Assembly (NCBI GenBank): GCA_041662525.1
Contig: JBAZSF010000001.1
Span: 41,383-105,382, forward strand
Length of the DNA: 64,000 nt
Source: Minisyncoccota bacterium
Lineage (GTDB): Bacteria; Patescibacteriota; Minisyncoccia; Phycocordibacterales; UBA9973
Reading direction: 5' to 3'
The first letter of the stretch is position 1; every line of letters begins with the position of its first letter. Below, in pieces: positions 55,434 through 61,414 of the stretch. The notes below the pieces were generated by a model. That model made no database searches. It saw nothing but the letters and a program-made list of their open reading frames with translations, and had not been told where the DNA came from. The translations under genes and the position numbers were made by a program.

Positions 55434-56783
55434 TTAAAATCCTTCTTCGTTCAACCTTTCATCTATTCTATTCATGTCTCTAGGAAACATACATGCTTCA
55501 CGAATATTTTTAAGTCCCAAAAGTTGCATAGTTATGCGCTCTGCTCCAAAAGAAAATCCTCCTTCTGGTGGAACCCCATATTTAAAAGCTTCAAGAAACA
55601 TTTTAATTTTATTTGGATCCATTTCCCAAAGTTTTACATGTTCGACAAGTTGTTCATAATTATTTATTCTGCGTCCACCAGAGAGCCATTCCACTCCACG
55701 ACATATCAGATCCATGCCTTCATTGTATTCTGGTTCGTCTGGATTTGGATAAACATAAAATGGTTTTTTGCGCGTAGGATATCCATAAATAAAAACGAAA
55801 TCGGAACCTGTCTCTTCTTTAATTATTTCAGAAATTTCTCTTTCATCTTGCGGATTGGTATCTTTTTCTCCTCGAACATCGCGACCAGATTTTTCAAAAA
55901 TTTTCTGTTGGACTTCTCTCAAAGAGAGAGACGGGGTTTTATCTAACATTATTGGAAGTGTAACATTCAATAATTTCAAATGTTCAGCATTTTTTATCTC
56001 TACTTGTTTTAAAATATATTTAAAAGTTTCTTCCGCCACGTCGCGTACATCAGTCCATGATTCTATAAAACCCATTTCAGCGTCTAGGCAAACAATCTCT
56101 GTCAAATGTCTGGTGGTCGATGAAGGCTCCGCGCGAAAAACCTTATTTACTGTAAAGCATCTCTCAAAAGCGGACATCACAATTTGCTTATAAAGTTGCG
56201 GGGATTGAGACAAATAAGCTTTCTTTCCGAAATAATCAAACTGAAAAACTTCTGCCCCACCCTCAGCCGCCGCCGGAGTGATGGAAGGCGCTTGAAATTC
56301 AAAAAACATATTTTGTTTCATAAATTCTCTAAAAGAATCAATAATCGTTTCTTGGATTTTAAAAATTGCTTGCACTTTTGGCTGTCTTAAAACCAATGCT
56401 CTATTGTCTAATTCGGTGGTAAGTTCTAAGTTATATCCATCAAGCGACATATCAAAAGGAAGCGCTTCTGCTTTTGCTAATACTTCAATCCCTACCACTT
56501 CCATCTCTACTTCCCCATTCAAAACTCCCGCTTTTATATTTTTTTCTGGACGTTTATTTACAATACCGGTAATTTTTAAAACCCATTCAGGACGAATTGT
56601 TTTTGCTACTTCTATCGCCTCAATATGGTTTGGTAAAGTAACACACTGCACTCGTCCAGTCATGTCTCGCATATCAAAAAAAACCATCTTCCCTTGATCC
56701 CGCCTGACATCTACCCAGCCGGCAATAATTATTTCCTTGCCAATATGATCTTTTAAATCTTTAATATATACTCGATTTTGCAT
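55434..56783 (-). CDS. aspS: class IIb aspartyl/asparaginyl-tRNA synthetase (archaeal/eukaryal-type AspRS or AsnRS)
   Basis: OB-fold N-terminus, motif 2 FRAEPSSTTRHLTE, motif 3 GGFSFGAERI; 449 aa. Confidence 0.85.
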   Translation of the reverse strand: MQNRVYIKDLKDHIGKEIIIAGWVDVRRDQGKMVFFDMRDMTGRVQCVTLPNHIEAIEVAKTIRPEWVLKITGIVNKRPEKNIKAGVLNGEVEMEVVGIEVLAKAEALPFDMSLDGYNLELTTELDNRALVLRQPKVQAIFKIQETIIDSFREFMKQNMFFEFQAPSITPAAAEGGAEVFQFDYFGKKAYLSQSPQLYKQIVMSAFERCFTVNKVFRAEPSSTTRHLTEIVCLDAEMGFIESWTDVRDVAEETFKYILKQVEIKNAEHLKLLNVTLPIMLDKTPSLSLREVQQKIFEKSGRDVRGEKDTNPQDEREISEIIKEETGSDFVFIYGYPTRKKPFYVYPNPDEPEYNEGMDLICRGVEWLSGGRRINNYEQLVEHVKLWEMDPNKIKMFLEAFKYGVPPEGGFSFGAERITMQLLGLKNIREACMFPRDMNRIDERLNEEGF

Positions 56784-56808
56784 AAAATTATTCTAACATA
56801 AATGACTT

Positions 56809-57828
56809 CTATTTCCCATTATGCCAAAGCTCGGTGACAGAATTGCCATTGTGTAAATTATCTATTACTTGCGCAATTAATTTCGCCGTAGAAATTACTT
56901 CCAAATTTTTTATTTTTTTTCGTACCTCTTCTCCTAGACAAGAATCCGTAAACCAAATACCAGAAAAATCTGCTTTGTTTAAATTCTCTATCGCATTACC
57001 AGAAAGCACAGCATGAGTGGTTGTAAAATAAACATCTTTTGCTCCGTTTTCTTTTAAAGTTTTGAGGGCTTTGATAGCTGTCCCACAAGTATCAGCCATA
57101 TCGTCCGGCATGATTATATTATATCCCCTCGGGTCCCCAATCACTTCCATGATTTCATTATGATTAGCTTTTTTAGGATCGCGAAATTTATTTATAATTA
57201 CAATATTGCCCGGAATTCCGAGTTGTTGCGCTAATCTTCTACAAGAAGGTGCCGCTCCTAAATCAGGCGCAACAATTTTAAATTTCTTCAAATCAAATTT
57301 CTTTGAACGAATGTGATTTAAAATAAGCGAATCTGTATTCACGTCCACCATAGGAATGGTTAGGGCGTGAGCGTTGTAGCTCGAAGGATTATGTAATTTC
57401 AAAACTACTATTCTGTGTGCCCCCGCCATCTGAAACCGCATTGGAATTTTTTGGGAAAGTACTGGCTCTCTGTGATTAGAAGATTCATCTTGTCTGGCAT
57501 AAGGCAAACATGGCATGACTACTGTTACTCGAAAAGGTTCGCCTTGTTTTAGAGCGAGAATCAAAGACTCGCATTCATCTAAATCATAAGAAAGTTTTTC
57601 TTTCTCGCCAAAACGAGGCTGGGAAATTATATAGACATCTCTATCTCGGACGGACTCTGTGTGATGCACTAAAAATTCTCCATTGCTGAATATTTTGTAA
57701 AAAAAGGGGTCTAATTTAGTTTTTAATAATTTAGCGACTTTTAAGGCAAGATCTTGATGGGTACCGCTAGCGTTTCCAAATAATTTTAAAGGGTAAGGGT
57801 TAAGGTTTGTCTGTTTTTGATTTTTCAT
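56809..57828 (-). CDS. prs: ribose-phosphate pyrophosphokinase
   Basis: PRPP-binding loop DDMADTCGTAIKA and N-terminal FSNGEF...VRDRDVYII. Confidence 0.85.
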   Translation of the reverse strand: MKNQKQTNLNPYPLKLFGNASGTHQDLALKVAKLLKTKLDPFFYKIFSNGEFLVHHTESVRDRDVYIISQPRFGEKEKLSYDLDECESLILALKQGEPFRVTVVMPCLPYARQDESSNHREPVLSQKIPMRFQMAGAHRIVVLKLHNPSSYNAHALTIPMVDVNTDSLILNHIRSKKFDLKKFKIVAPDLGAAPSCRRLAQQLGIPGNIVIINKFRDPKKANHNEIMEVIGDPRGYNIIMPDDMADTCGTAIKALKTLKENGAKDVYFTTTHAVLSGNAIENLNKADFSGIWFTDSCLGEEVRKKIKNLEVISTAKLIAQVIDNLHNGNSVTELWHNGK

Positions 57829-57893
57829 TACAAAAGTATTTTATCATAAGGATAAATAAAACAAAAACTTGCAAAAATACCGACGAGGACTTG

Positions 57894-57919
57894 ACCCCGT
57901 CGCTCGCGAGCGATGGGGT
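57894..57919. repeat. 26-nt GC-rich palindrome ACCCCGTCGCTCG-CGAGCGATGGGGT upstream of prs
   Basis: 13-bp stem with one G-U position; abuts a TTGACT -35 box. Confidence 0.5.
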
Positions 57920-58104
57920 TGACTTAAAAAAATTTTCATATATTATATTCTTAATGCAATCAAATATAGGTTTTAACAATTATTTCTTCTTTTTTAGCTT
58001 CTGGACCAAAGGTTCCAGAGTTCATTTCTGATATTGTTAAAATCATTCTAAACAAACATAACAATACAAGAAACGAGCCCTGGAACGGGCTCGTTTCTCT
58101 TTTC
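57919..58104 (+). promoter_or_regulatory. candidate promoter (TTGACT-16-TATTAT), ~150-nt leader with internal hairpin, and intrinsic terminator (58071-58104) upstream of the tandem paralog genes: attenuator-like leader or small RNA
   Basis: Terminator aaacgagccc-tggaa-cgggctcgttt + ctctttt. Upstream GGTTCCAG (58011) can pair with the CTGGAAC in the terminator (possible antiterminator). Confidence 0.35.
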
Positions 58105-58184
58105 AAGAGGAAATTTTCTTTGAAATCAAAATAAAAACAGCTATCTTTGATAGTTGAAAAGATAGAGAGAAAGGAGAAAGGAAA

Positions 58185-58613
58185 ATGACTCAAAAAGAAA
58201 AACAAAAAATAGTTTTTCGTAGTCTTCATGTGAATTTTGGCGACATGGTCGTCACTATTCACGAAATGAGTAGAGGGGGTGTCCTCTACTATTTTTTCAA
58301 CAATTTCGGAAGGTTTAAAGAAATATCTTTTCCGTCAGAAGAAGAGGTAGAGGAATTTTGTCAGGAACACCCTGATAAATTAGCTCCTAAGCTTTTTTCA
58401 ACCTTTTTTCTGTGCAAAAGAGAAAAAAGGTTTATCGTTATTAGGGTGGTAGTAAAAGATTTCCAAAAAATTGATCTGGAGGAGATTTCTCTAAGATCAA
58501 AGGAAGAATGGAGCCCTTGGCATAGGGTGGTAGTAGTGGTGCCACCAAAGAAATCTACAAAACAACAAACAGCTGTATTAGTAGCTACAAAAAACAAAGG
58601 GGGTAGTAAATAA
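58185..58613 (+). CDS. hypothetical protein (142 aa), tandem paralog A
   Basis: Strong SD AAAGGAG; shares FC-x-(E/D)HP(D/N)KLA, FFLCK and EWSP(W/L)H(R/W)VVVV(V/L)PP with the next gene. Confidence 0.5.
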   Translation: MTQKEKQKIVFRSLHVNFGDMVVTIHEMSRGGVLYYFFNNFGRFKEISFPSEEEVEEFCQEHPDKLAPKLFSTFFLCKREKRFIVIRVVVKDFQKIDLEEISLRSKEEWSPWHRVVVVVPPKKSTKQQTAVLVATKNKGGSK

Positions 58614-58614
58614 A

Positions 58615-59061
58615 ATGAAGAAAAAAGATAATTTTTATTTTTCAAAGGTAGGGTCGTTACTTGCAGTTAGAAAAAATAGCGTGCTTCGTAAAGCATACGA
58701 GAATTTATTCAACAGAAGTCCGCAAGTTATTTTTCGTGACCAGCATGTAGCTGGTTACGAAATGAGAGAAAGAGGCACTCTCGAAAATTTTTTCTCTAGC
58801 CTTGATCTCGGAAAAATTGAAAACCTTTGTTTCGAATTACGAAGCGAGATTGACGATTTTTGTCGAGACCACCCCAACAAATTGGCGAGGAATCGTCGTT
58901 ACACTTTTTTCCTCTGCAAAGAGGGGGGAAGTATAACAGTCATTCGCATCTGCGTGAATGACTACTCAGAACTCATTATTGATGAGTTTCCTATAAATTA
59001 TGGACTTGAGTGGAGTCCGTTGCATTGGGTGGTTGTTGTATTACCGCCCGAAAAGAAATAG
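58615..59061 (+). CDS. hypothetical protein (148 aa), tandem paralog B
   Basis: Starts 1 nt after the paralog A stop; same motif set. Confidence 0.5.
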   Translation: MKKKDNFYFSKVGSLLAVRKNSVLRKAYENLFNRSPQVIFRDQHVAGYEMRERGTLENFFSSLDLGKIENLCFELRSEIDDFCRDHPNKLARNRRYTFFLCKEGGSITVIRICVNDYSELIIDEFPINYGLEWSPLHWVVVVLPPEKK

Positions 59062-59080
59062 AAATATCGCTTTATCAATC

Positions 59081-59126
59081 ATGCCGCCCAGAGGTCTTCG
59101 ACCAAAAGGCGGCATTCTTATTTTAT
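59081..59126. terminator. terminator between the convergent paralog pair and trpA
   Basis: atgccgcc-(19)-ggcggcat followed by tcttatttta. Confidence 0.6.
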
Positions 59127-59909
59127 AACTTTATACATAAATTTATTAGCCTCTGATACGATTTCAGAATTTTTACTTTTTCTTATAACATCAATTATTG
59201 CACTTCCAATAATTCCTATTTCTGAATATCTTTTTATTAATTTTAAATCTTTTGATGAAGAAATACCAAAACCAACAGCAAGTGGAATTGAGGACCCACC
59301 TCTTACTCGCTCCAAATATAAACTAATATCTTTTGCAAATTTTTTACCTGTTCCTGTGGTTCCTTGCCTCGATGTGCAATAAATAAAACCACTCGCCAAT
59401 TTTTTAATTTCTTGAAGTCGATTATCTTCTATTGCCGGAGAAATTACATAAATAAGATGCACTCTTGCTTTTGTGGCATAATTTTGTAATGTTTTACACT
59501 CTTCTGTGTCATAAGGAAGGTCGGGAACAATCAGCCCAGAAACTCCAGAATCTTTACAAGCAACACAAAAACGCTCAATACCCATATGAATTAAAATATT
59601 TGCGTATGTCATTAAAACTACAGGTGTTTTAAGATTTTTACTCACAAATTTTGCCAACTCAAAACTATCTTTAATTCTTGTACCCGCATCAAGAGATTTC
59701 TGGCAAGCCTCAACGATTAATGTGCCGTCAGCCATTGGATCAGAAAAAGGGATTTGAATTTCTATAATATTTGCCCCGCCTTTTACTAAAGCTTTAGCAA
59801 TTCTTTTTGAAAGTGAAAATGTTGGGTAACCCGTCACCAAATGTGCCATTACTCCAATTCTTTTTCTCTCTTTAATTTTTTCTATAACGATATCAATTTT
59901 ATTTTTCAT
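59118..59909 (-). CDS. trpA: tryptophan synthase alpha chain
   Basis: TIM-barrel TrpA with conserved YxNP-like region (YANILIH...GVSGLIVPDLP) and C-terminal GFGISS. Confidence 0.85.
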   Translation of the reverse strand: MKNKIDIVIEKIKERKRIGVMAHLVTGYPTFSLSKRIAKALVKGGANIIEIQIPFSDPMADGTLIVEACQKSLDAGTRIKDSFELAKFVSKNLKTPVVLMTYANILIHMGIERFCVACKDSGVSGLIVPDLPYDTEECKTLQNYATKARVHLIYVISPAIEDNRLQEIKKLASGFIYCTSRQGTTGTGKKFAKDISLYLERVRGGSSIPLAVGFGISSSKDLKLIKRYSEIGIIGSAIIDVIRKSKNSEIVSEANKFMYKVIK

Positions 59910-61131
59910 ATCTTTTTATTTCTTCAACGAGAAACTTTTTAAATTCTTTATTATTAATAAAACGAGTAATGTTAAAAAGATCTTTATCTCCTCTTCCTGA
60001 CACATTCACAACCACAATTTTCTTTTTTGATAATGTTGGTAAAATTTTAAAAGCAGAAGCAAGTGCATGGGAAGACTCAAGAGCTGGAATAATTCCTTCA
60101 TATTTAGCCGTTATTTGAAAAGCTTCTATGGCTTCCTTGTCAGATGCAGATTGAAGCTCTATCCTTTTGTTTTTATAAAATTCTACAAGTTCAGGGCCCA
60201 TCCCTGGATAATCAAGACCAGCTGCAATACTATCTGTCGGAGCAATGTGTCCTTCTTTCGTTTGAAGAAACAATGATTTATATCCTTGAAAAATCCCCAA
60301 ACTTCCATTTTCTTTTCTTATTGCATTTTCTCCTATCTTTTTCCCAACTCCCCCTGCTTCTACACCAACAAGCCTGACATTTCTATTTTTTATAAAATCA
60401 TAAAATGCTCCAATCGCATTACTACCACCACCCACACAAGCAAATACAAAATCTGGAAGTTTTTGTTCTTTTTTTTCTAACTGTTTTTTAATTTCTTTTC
60501 CAATAATTGACTGAAAAGTTCGATTCATAATAGGATATGGGTGAGGACCAAGCACAGAACCAATCACATAATAACTTTCATCAGAATTTCCCATCCAATA
60601 TTTAAGCGCCTCATTTACAGCATCTTTTAAAGTCTTACTACCCGAAGAAACACTTATTACTTCAGCTCCCAATTGCTCCATCCAAAAAACATTTGGTCTT
60701 TGACGAGCAATGTCTTTTTCGCCCATAAAAATTTTACATTTAAAACCAAATTTTGCTGCAATAGTCGCAGTAGCTACTCCATGTTGGCCAGCACCTGTTT
60801 CTGCAATAAGTTCTTTTTTGCCAAGTCTTTTAGCAATAAGCGCCTGTCCAATACAATGAGTAATCTTGTGAGCACCTGTATGATTTGCTCCCTCATTTTT
60901 AAAATATAATTTTGCCCCTCCAAAATGTTTTGTAAGATTTTCTGCATAAATCAGAGGGGTGGGGCGCCCACTATATGAATCTAGAAGTTCAAAAAATTCT
61001 TTCTGAAATTTTTTATCTTTCATAGCTTTTTTAAATTCAGTTTCTATTTCCTTAAGCGCATGAACAAGCATTTCTGGTATGTAAGCTCCACCATATTGAC
61101 CAAAGTATCCATTTTTTGTTTTTGTTTTCAT
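59899..61131 (-). CDS. trpB: tryptophan synthase beta chain
   Basis: GQYGGAYIPE, HTGAHKI (PLP Lys), GAGQHGVATA motifs. Confidence 0.9.
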   Translation of the reverse strand: MKTKTKNGYFGQYGGAYIPEMLVHALKEIETEFKKAMKDKKFQKEFFELLDSYSGRPTPLIYAENLTKHFGGAKLYFKNEGANHTGAHKITHCIGQALIAKRLGKKELIAETGAGQHGVATATIAAKFGFKCKIFMGEKDIARQRPNVFWMEQLGAEVISVSSGSKTLKDAVNEALKYWMGNSDESYYVIGSVLGPHPYPIMNRTFQSIIGKEIKKQLEKKEQKLPDFVFACVGGGSNAIGAFYDFIKNRNVRLVGVEAGGVGKKIGENAIRKENGSLGIFQGYKSLFLQTKEGHIAPTDSIAAGLDYPGMGPELVEFYKNKRIELQSASDKEAIEAFQITAKYEGIIPALESSHALASAFKILPTLSKKKIVVVNVSGRGDKDLFNITRFINNKEFKKFLVEEIKRYEK

Positions 61132-61198: not shown

Positions 61199-61414
61199 TC
61201 ACAACCCTATTATGCTACCCCAGCCATCTCTGGGACGCTCTATTGTCATACGAGTCTGTGGTTCTTTGTCCAAAGATTCACGTATGACCAAAGAGATATT
61301 GCATGTTTTGCAAAAACCCAACCAAACCTTAGGCATATCCTCAATAAAGACAACTCTGCTCTTACATTTTGGACATATTTTTACCGGAAGTTGAATTCTT
61401 TCTTCAAGCAACAT
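61199..61414 (-). CDS. small zinc-ribbon protein (71 aa) encoded in the trpB leader
   Basis: SD AAAGGAGG; ICPKCKSR...FCKTCNIS has two CxxC pairs. Confidence 0.45.
   Translation of the reverse strand: MLLEERIQLPVKICPKCKSRVVFIEDMPKVWLGFCKTCNISLVIRESLDKEPQTRMTIERPRDGWGSIIGL

Follow-up and report, generated by a model that had tools for sequence, protein, structure and literature searches.

Our analysis of a 64-kb window (the whole stretch of 64,000 nucleotides analyzed here, from contig JBAZSF010000001.1 of a Candidatus Paceibacterota metagenome-assembled genome [MAG]) indicated that positions 57919-58104 probably form a ribosome-mediated leader-peptide transcription attenuator, which would sense the supply of phenylalanine (Phe) or, more broadly, of aromatic aminoacyl-tRNAs. 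The element occupies the 356-nt gap between a divergent prs gene (56809-57828, minus strand) and two tandem genes whose products are catalogued as hypothetical proteins (WC671_00550 and WC671_00555). An earlier sequence-only reading had proposed that a riboswitch or an attenuator controls the pair; the attenuator and its antiterminator held and could be sharpened to the Phe leader-peptide type, whereas the riboswitch found no support, as no Rfam family matched and a conserved, translated-looking open reading frame (ORF) within the leader explains its anatomy.

The candidate leader starts with a sigma-70-like promoter, TTGACT-16-TATTAT at 57919-57946, which the sequence-only reading had marked and which was indeed the top promoter-like match in 56500-60000 (10 of 12 positions), an interval in which such matches are not enriched (12 found vs 11.2 expected). 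The small ORF behind it, at 57954-58031, had been overlooked. It is the sole ATG-started ORF of 10 to 40 codons with the motif FFFF in the window, where four TTY codons in a row occur merely four times per strand. The ATG at 57954 begins 7-8 nt past the -10 box and, as read from the sequence, no room is left between the two for a Shine-Dalgarno (SD) motif, so that the leader mRNA would be leaderless, or nearly so, if this promoter is used. The ORF is therefore probably leaderless, with the predicted transcript start at the AUG or 1 nt before it.

Folding of the leader RNA in silico yielded alternative structures built from four regions (Table 1). The free window RNA folds into the 1:2 hairpin plus the terminator with a minimum free energy (MFE) of -40.8 kcal/mol (z = -5.07), and none of 200 shuffles was as stable. 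Both the hairpin at 57999-58020 and the terminator noticed earlier are present, the latter as a perfect 12-bp stem (58069-58080 with 58087-58098) followed by CUUUUC; terminator-like sites numbered 8, against 1.9 expected from shuffles. The antiterminator pairing that had been suggested, GGTTCCAG with CTGGAAC, proved to be the end of a larger 28-nt pairing of 58012-58039 with 58059-58086 (82% complementary), and the leader stop codon (58029-58031) falls inside region 2. The window leader, taken through 58110, was then refolded under a simulated ribosome footprint: masking of the 5' end to 58010 made the 2:3 antiterminator the MFE structure (-29.4 kcal/mol) and abolished the terminator, and with the ribosome placed at the stop codon the terminator alone formed (-21.6 kcal/mol). 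In a separate set of seven leaders ending at the U-tract, the terminator formed in 7/7 with the ribosome set on the stop codon, and a ribosome on the Phe run made the antiterminator the MFE structure in 5/7; the exceptions were the window and the related locus L044, in which a partial 2:3 pairing plus the terminator was slightly more stable (-28.6 vs about -26 kcal/mol in the window).

In the mechanism that we propose, the transcript would start at the AUG of the 25-codon ORF or right beside it, and ribosomes would read the ORF as a leaderless mRNA. Under a shortage of charged tRNA-Phe, the ribosome would stall in YFFFFSF(W) and cover region 1, the 2:3 antiterminator would form in place of the terminator, and RNA polymerase would read into the two genes, which would be co-transcribed. 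When Phe is plentiful, the ribosome would reach the stop codon in region 2, allowing the 3:4 terminator to form and transcription to end at about 58104; if the ORF is not translated, formation of 1:2 together with 3:4 would lead to termination likewise. The pair's mRNA would most simply arise by read-through from the leader promoter.

The conservation of the leader was traced in eight loci from at least seven genomes (the window and seven loci of related Paceibacterota, a group of ultra-small bacteria that are uncultured), all adjoining prs. Starting from P0003, the protein relative closest to the pair, we reached a syntenic locus in a second Paceibacterota MAG (L005; L031 is the same contig), where EamA, flavokinase, aspS and prs share one strand and are followed by the same leader, a single family gene and trpS; L041-L046 were found via P0008 and P0011 and then by a scan with a conserved 23-mer, which succeeded after a longer leader pattern had given 0 matches in metagenome contigs. 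Back-translated NYFFFFxFW was also tried on genome contigs and set aside: 25 of its 26 matches lacked a comparable leader ORF (mostly there was no upstream ATG, and none resembled the leader), and the sole genuine match was L031. Promoter, ATG and stop codon are kept in 8/8 loci, as are the length and frame of the ORF, and no indels fall inside the ORF, with several directly past its end. Across the loci the leader peptide reads M(Q/K/R)S(N/Y)(I/M/T)(G/S/N)FNN(Y/F)FFFFS(F/Y)(W/R)(T/S/N)(K/Q)GSRVHF. Codons 10-16 show only TTC/TTT, TAT/TAC or Phe/Tyr changes, keeping every position aromatic except the invariant Ser at codon 15. Two loci, L044 and L045, have Arg at codon 17, where five others have Trp.

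At the RNA level, variable alignment columns (seven loci) amount to 1/32 in region 2 and 2/27 in region 3, both of the latter at the loop edge, compared with 14/17 in the spacer, 13/22 in the loop, region 4 and tail, and 7/27 in the N-terminal codons. A variable spacer and region 4 next to nearly invariant regions 2 and 3 would be expected if each of the latter takes part in two pairings. The terminator stem is kept in 7 loci while region 4 varies among them, by way of a G-U pair, a bulged C and loop-length changes, and changes in region 1 (e.g., GGACCAAAGG to GGAACCAAGG) re-register the 1:2 hairpin and leave it in place; the 1:2 fold is common to 6/7 full-length leaders, with the inner hairpin only in L046. 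Between the window and L005, the leader is identical at 148/151 positions (98%), and its 3 substitutions fit the structure; the corresponding nucleotide identities are 86.6% for prs and 87.4% for aspS, and the downstream gene shares about 37-44% protein identity.

The same conservation bears on a different explanation, in which the leader would be a translation-independent RNA switch whose regions 2 and 3 are the binding site of a metabolite, protein or tRNA that decides between terminator and antiterminator, and whose small ORF is incidental. Near-invariant regions 2 and 3 that show no covariation, and an ORF with no SD ahead of it, speak for such a switch. We nevertheless regard it as very unlikely, because the start, stop, frame and length of the ORF are kept in all eight loci, free of indels despite indels immediately downstream, because every change in codons 10-16 keeps Phe or Tyr, because the stop codon lies exactly in region 2, and because no conserved multi-helix junction of the kind seen in aptamers is apparent. 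Nor did an Rfam scan of the leader, which the sequence-only reading had called for, match any family. With Rfam 15 at gathering scores, only a tRNA passes in the whole window, and in a permissive scan of 57800-58250 all matches stayed far under the thresholds; the best on the plus strand was the ylbH leader (20.9 bits vs a gathering score of 50), covering the terminator only, and RF01859 (Phe_leader) reached 17.7 bits on the minus strand vs a gathering score of 55.

Table 1. Features of the leader and of the gene pair (window positions, 5' to 3')
Feature	Position	Strand	Remarks
Sigma-70-like promoter	57919..57946	+	Same spacing in 8/8 loci
Leader ORF, 25 codons, MQSNIGFNNYFFFFSFWTKGSRVHF	57954..58031; stop TGA 58029-58031	+	Putative translation; length, frame and both ends unchanged across 8 loci
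Region 1 (5' strand of 1:2 anti-antiterminator)	57969..58007, bipartite: 57969-57984 + 57996-58007	+	From MFE of free leader; spans Phe codons
Regulatory codon run Y-F-F-F-F-S-F-W	57981..58004	+	Four consecutive Phe codons at 57984-57995
Region 2	58011..58044	+	Predicted to pair with region 1 (1:2) or region 3 (2:3); holds leader stop codon
Region 3	58059..58086	+	Predicted to pair with 58012-58039 (antiterminator), or serves as terminator 5' arm and loop
Intrinsic terminator (3:4)	58069..58104	+	12-bp stem, loop UGGAAC, CUUUUC; -21.6 kcal/mol
8-bp hairpin in terminator-to-SD interval, CAGCUAUC-UUU-GAUAGUUG	58138..58156	+	Conserved; unique in window
SD AAAGGAG and gene 1	SD 58170-58176; ATG 58185; gene 58185-58613	+	142 aa; family member
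Gene 2	58615-59061	+	148 aa; tandem paralog, 1 nt past gene 1 stop; own SD-like AAGGGGG upstream
Hairpin with U-rich tail closing the pair	59081..59125		-19.3 kcal/mol (RNAfold); faces convergent trpA

What follows the leader differs among the relatives. In L044 a gene for 3-deoxy-D-arabino-heptulosonate 7-phosphate (DAHP) synthase comes directly after it (PF00793, E 1.3e-59), and in L042 a DAHP synthase gene (E 5.9e-12) comes after a 55-codon ORF; the window holds no DAHP synthase. L043 has a 29-aa fragment (MEKITYLGPSGATFSELAY) after the leader, which we take to resemble the N-terminus of prephenate dehydratase, a likeness that could not be confirmed. L045 has a small Cys-rich ORF in this position, and the window, L005 and L046 have a family gene, which in L041-L043 instead stands ahead of the leader with its own promoter and terminator. 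The presence of DAHP synthase after the leader in two relatives indicates that the leader is ancestrally an attenuator of aromatic amino acid biosynthesis, and a leader once placed before DAHP synthase genes would then have come to precede one fast-evolving family gene, here duplicated; the single copy in L005 and L046 implies that the tandem duplication is specific to the window lineage. L041 and L046 have prs genes that are 94% identical and yet opposite arrangements, which marks the prs-trpS segment as a rearrangement hot spot. Gene content and order between prs and trpS differ among the loci, with trpBA in the window only and aroG or pheA-like genes in others. The family genes at the locus are merely 25-51% identical at the protein level, compared with about 95% for the neighboring Prs protein (window and L005); at the nucleotide level, prs identities across the loci range from 83 to 99%.

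This turnover raises the question of whether a genuine attenuator could be decoupled from the pair, that is, a relic of a lost aromatic operon whose terminated RNA of about 150 nt or 25-aa peptide acts alone, for example in trans, with the pair having its own transcription start. Conservation is higher in the leader than in the coding DNA that flanks it, its downstream content ranges over a family gene, DAHP synthase and a Cys-rich ORF, a weak promoter-like site lies at 58120-58147, downstream of the terminator, and a trans-acting attenuator RNA has a precedent in rnTrpL (PMC6614838). That site, once considered as an internal promoter, was dropped since the match is not conserved in the relatives; moreover, the order of leader then family gene has lasted in three lineages whose prs genes are 13-16% different, an antiterminator would be pointless if read-through had no target, and no target of a trans-acting RNA is known. 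We thus consider decoupling unlikely, at somewhat better odds than the RNA switch. The sequence-only reading had offered a small RNA gene followed by the pair as an alternative, and the terminated leader RNA may have such a role in addition, but a small RNA leaves the conserved ORF and the exclusive structures unexplained. The Phe attenuator acting on the pair itself remains our preferred reading of the locus.

Three independent assemblies (the starts of L001, L002 and L003) break at the terminator hairpin, at 58057-58084. These breaks likely stem from two co-occurring strains that share an identical leader stretch: SRR18595301 yielded both gene types (L002, L006), and an overlap of about 61 nt links L001 to the prs-side contig L004 of ERZ27249449. 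Two other causes of the breaks, a repeat and an invertible promoter, were considered and dropped, as sharing between two strains explains them.

The two genes, separated by 1 nt, are paralogs, as the sequence-only reading had proposed (BLASTP, 38% identity over 125 aa, E 8e-29), and the shared motifs it had quoted are invariant columns of their alignment; the SD motif AAAGGAG at 58170-58176 ahead of the ATG at 58185 was likewise found. Its description of the products as unknown proteins holds insofar as neither protein nor the family profile matched Pfam, NCBIfam, PADLOC or PDB sequences, and PHROGs gave only marginal matches to families of unknown function (E 0.014 and 0.2). This description can be refined to a family restricted to Patescibacteria whose longer members are verified variable proteins of diversity-generating retroelements (DGRs). 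A word-indexed protein search with the single window proteins returned only themselves; a profile of the pair retrieved 116 cluster representatives and a wider profile 181 proteins, and all matches with a named source are hypothetical proteins of the Patescibacteria group. Among 89 members scanned against Pfam, no family recurred and 3 isolated weak matches appeared. The AlphaFold2 model of the gene 1 product reached a mean predicted local distance difference test score of 85.8. Foldseek found no significant match for it in PDB or BFVD, and the highest-probability matches in both libraries, although non-significant, were C-type-lectin-like. These matches agree with a reported fold of DGR target proteins (PMC11661182). 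A C-type-lectin-like fold of the family is suggestive only, and the RNA- or nucleotide-binding fold that had been considered possible found no support, as the sole fold similarities were these non-significant ones.

The relationship to DGRs came from two typical family members of 212-214 aa, P0177 and P0118, whose genes lie directly upstream of bAvd and a reverse transcriptase (RT; RVT_1). The C-terminal 118-127 nt of both are repeated about 430 nt downstream, and the mismatches between this variable repeat (VR) and the downstream copy, the template repeat (TR), fall at adenines of the TR in 22/22 cases for P0177 and 15/17 for P0118. The repeats of P0177 and P0118 form bona fide DGR VR/TR pairs. 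RT and Avd adjoin family homologs in L033-L036, and complete DGR cassettes of other Paceibacterota, with the target and its VR, the TR, bAvd on the opposite strand and the RT, span 4001-6487 in L033 and 4001-6464 in L035. Against P0177, gene 1 gave a BLASTP E value of 3.9e-9 and gene 2 one of 3.9e-8, a link that the profile search also makes, and P0003 matched P0118 at E 1e-11. The last ~40 residues of the window proteins (FIVIRVVV...EWSPWHRVVVVVPP) align with the VR.

Homology to verified variable proteins, the alignment of the C-terminal 40 residues with the VR and the extreme divergence at the locus could all mean that a DGR encoded elsewhere in the genome actively targets the pair, whose variability would then arise from DGR mutagenesis instead of ordinary divergence. 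In the 64-kb window, however, no TR-like repeat of the 3' part of either gene was found except the paralog, and among window ORFs of at least 100 aa the YxDD motif of RTs occurred in DnaB only (no search with RT or Avd profiles was run on the window). Contigs from three independent samples carry the two genes with 100% identity, the divergence of orthologs is spread over the whole protein rather than the VR-equivalent part alone, and another family member, P0171, also has no RT or Avd within 4 kb. Active diversification of the pair is therefore as improbable, in our estimate, as the RNA switch. The lack of a TR or RT in the window and the identity across three samples imply that the pair is probably not being diversified, and its genes are probably non-diversified, fast-evolving members of a DGR-target family.

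Several observations weigh against the Phe attenuator. Its ORF has no SD, so that the model requires leaderless initiation, and we know of no documentation of such initiation in these organisms. Regions 2 and 3 are conserved with no covariation or compensatory change, which a ligand- or protein-binding RNA would fit too. The U-tract of the terminator, CUUUUC, is short, and in 2/7 leaders (the window and L044) antiterminator and terminator are nearly iso-energetic at equilibrium, which means that the decision would have to be kinetic. The comparative loci all belong to one narrow clade with prs genes that are 83-94% identical (nucleotide). Finally, the sensed amino acid usually matches the pathway controlled, and the two family proteins that form the cargo in the window have no known link to Phe.

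The mechanism proposed is a known one; its phylum, its apparently leaderless ORF and its cargo are what is unusual. The four-region attenuator model of the textbooks is that of E. coli trpL. The window leader is like trpL in its regions 1-4, its 1:2, 2:3 and 3:4 pairings, the location of its regulatory codons within region 1, and a stop codon at which a ribosome that has not stalled would mask region 2; it is unlike trpL in having Phe/Tyr rather than Trp codons, a bipartite region 1 (57969-57984 and 57996-58007) and no SD. With pheL-pheA of the gamma-proteobacteria (RF01859; PMC3082878), it shares a short ORF with a Phe run and a terminator with a competing antiterminator, and also the control of aromatic biosynthesis, although only in the relatives with DAHP synthase. 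It differs from pheL in showing no sequence or covariance-model similarity, in its 25-codon, apparently leaderless ORF, in its occurrence in Patescibacteria and in its non-biosynthetic cargo. Leaderless poly-Cys short ORFs of mycobacteria reportedly act as Cys-responsive attenuators (bioRxiv 10.1101/834739). They resemble the window ORF, as proposed here, in being leaderless short ORFs at the 5' end of an operon whose translation senses one amino acid; they differ in belonging to Actinobacteria and in their Cys codons. Leader-peptide attenuators have also been predicted in Actinobacteria by comparative genomics (PMC1262725), likewise outside Proteobacteria, although in a different phylum and with unrelated sequences. 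As for the cargo, the pair is homologous to the VR/TR/bAvd/RT-verified targets among the DGR variable proteins of Patescibacteria (DGR clade 2; PMC8144416), but the window proteins are shorter, lacking the N-terminal region of the 212-aa targets, have no TR or RT in the window and are invariant across samples. In the library searched, no paper joined the terms leader peptide, attenuation and Patescibacteria, which is absence of evidence only.

Further features flank the leader. A GC-rich palindrome (57885-57919; arms 57894-57906 and 57907-57919) extends into the -35 box from immediately upstream; L005 lacks this insertion, and unrelated palindromes, each with TTGAC-like motifs, occupy the same spot in L044 (4120-4157) and L046 (5922-5950). 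In the hairpin at 58138-58156, 95.7% of cells are paired and 3/8 pairs have changed on both sides (6 copies, 5 loci); slid controls were 13-55% paired, and 29/500 shuffles reached the observed values. Similar hairpins flanked by A-runs recur before post-leader genes in L042 (1877-1897, 2115-2133) and L043 (1936-1990), and the minus strand of the window hairpin would read as a hairpin followed by a U-run. Roles in mRNA processing, in mRNA stability or as an antisense terminator are possibilities. Downstream of the pair, the minus strand carries a convergent block with trpA, trpB, a Cys-rich small ORF, a Trp-repressor-like gene and trpS. The small ORF (CxxC...CxxC; 61199-61414, minus strand, in the window and 6959-7264 in L046) has no Pfam match and adjoins the Trp-repressor-like gene in both loci.

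A second candidate attenuator, of the Trp leader-peptide type, lies on the minus strand at 61600-61441, upstream of the Cys-rich ORF (61199-61414), trpB and trpA. Its putative ORF of 33 codons (61600-61499, MMILSKNQQNKKQEIYKLNSWWGAKVNVFALFC) has tandem Trp codons at 61540-61535, a 1:2 hairpin right after them (61534-61509) and a terminator with a U-run at 61460-61441. In masked folding of this single sequence, a ribosome on WW led to 2:3 pairing and a ribosome at the stop codon led to the terminator. No SD precedes the ORF, and a possible TTGCTT/TAGCAT promoter would make it leaderless too. This candidate suggests that a device of the same kind serves for Trp in this organism.

Leader-peptide attenuation requires a ribosome that closely trails RNA polymerase. 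If our reading is correct, a conserved example would show coupling-based sensing in Patescibacteria, whose genomes are reduced and which are not growable alone, and the leader would act as a sequence-level reporter of an amino acid that these organisms monitor. New with respect to the textbook cases would be the apparently leaderless ORF, the absence of similarity to the pheL family and, as proposed here, the fast-evolving gene family as cargo. The leader would further provide a first regulatory clue for a large, unannotated Patescibacteria family that is hypermutated by DGRs in other genomes and that diverges at this locus far faster than its neighbors. A more speculative scenario, which we consider doubtful but slightly better placed than decoupling of the leader from the pair, is that these ultra-small, host-dependent bacteria have re-used an ancestral Phe attenuator, so that amino-acid hunger, sensed when ribosomes stall on a leaderless mini-ORF, induces a rapidly evolving protein of the DGR-variable-protein family that binds a ligand. 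If true, such re-use would couple nutrient starvation not to biosynthesis but directly to interaction with a host or partner.

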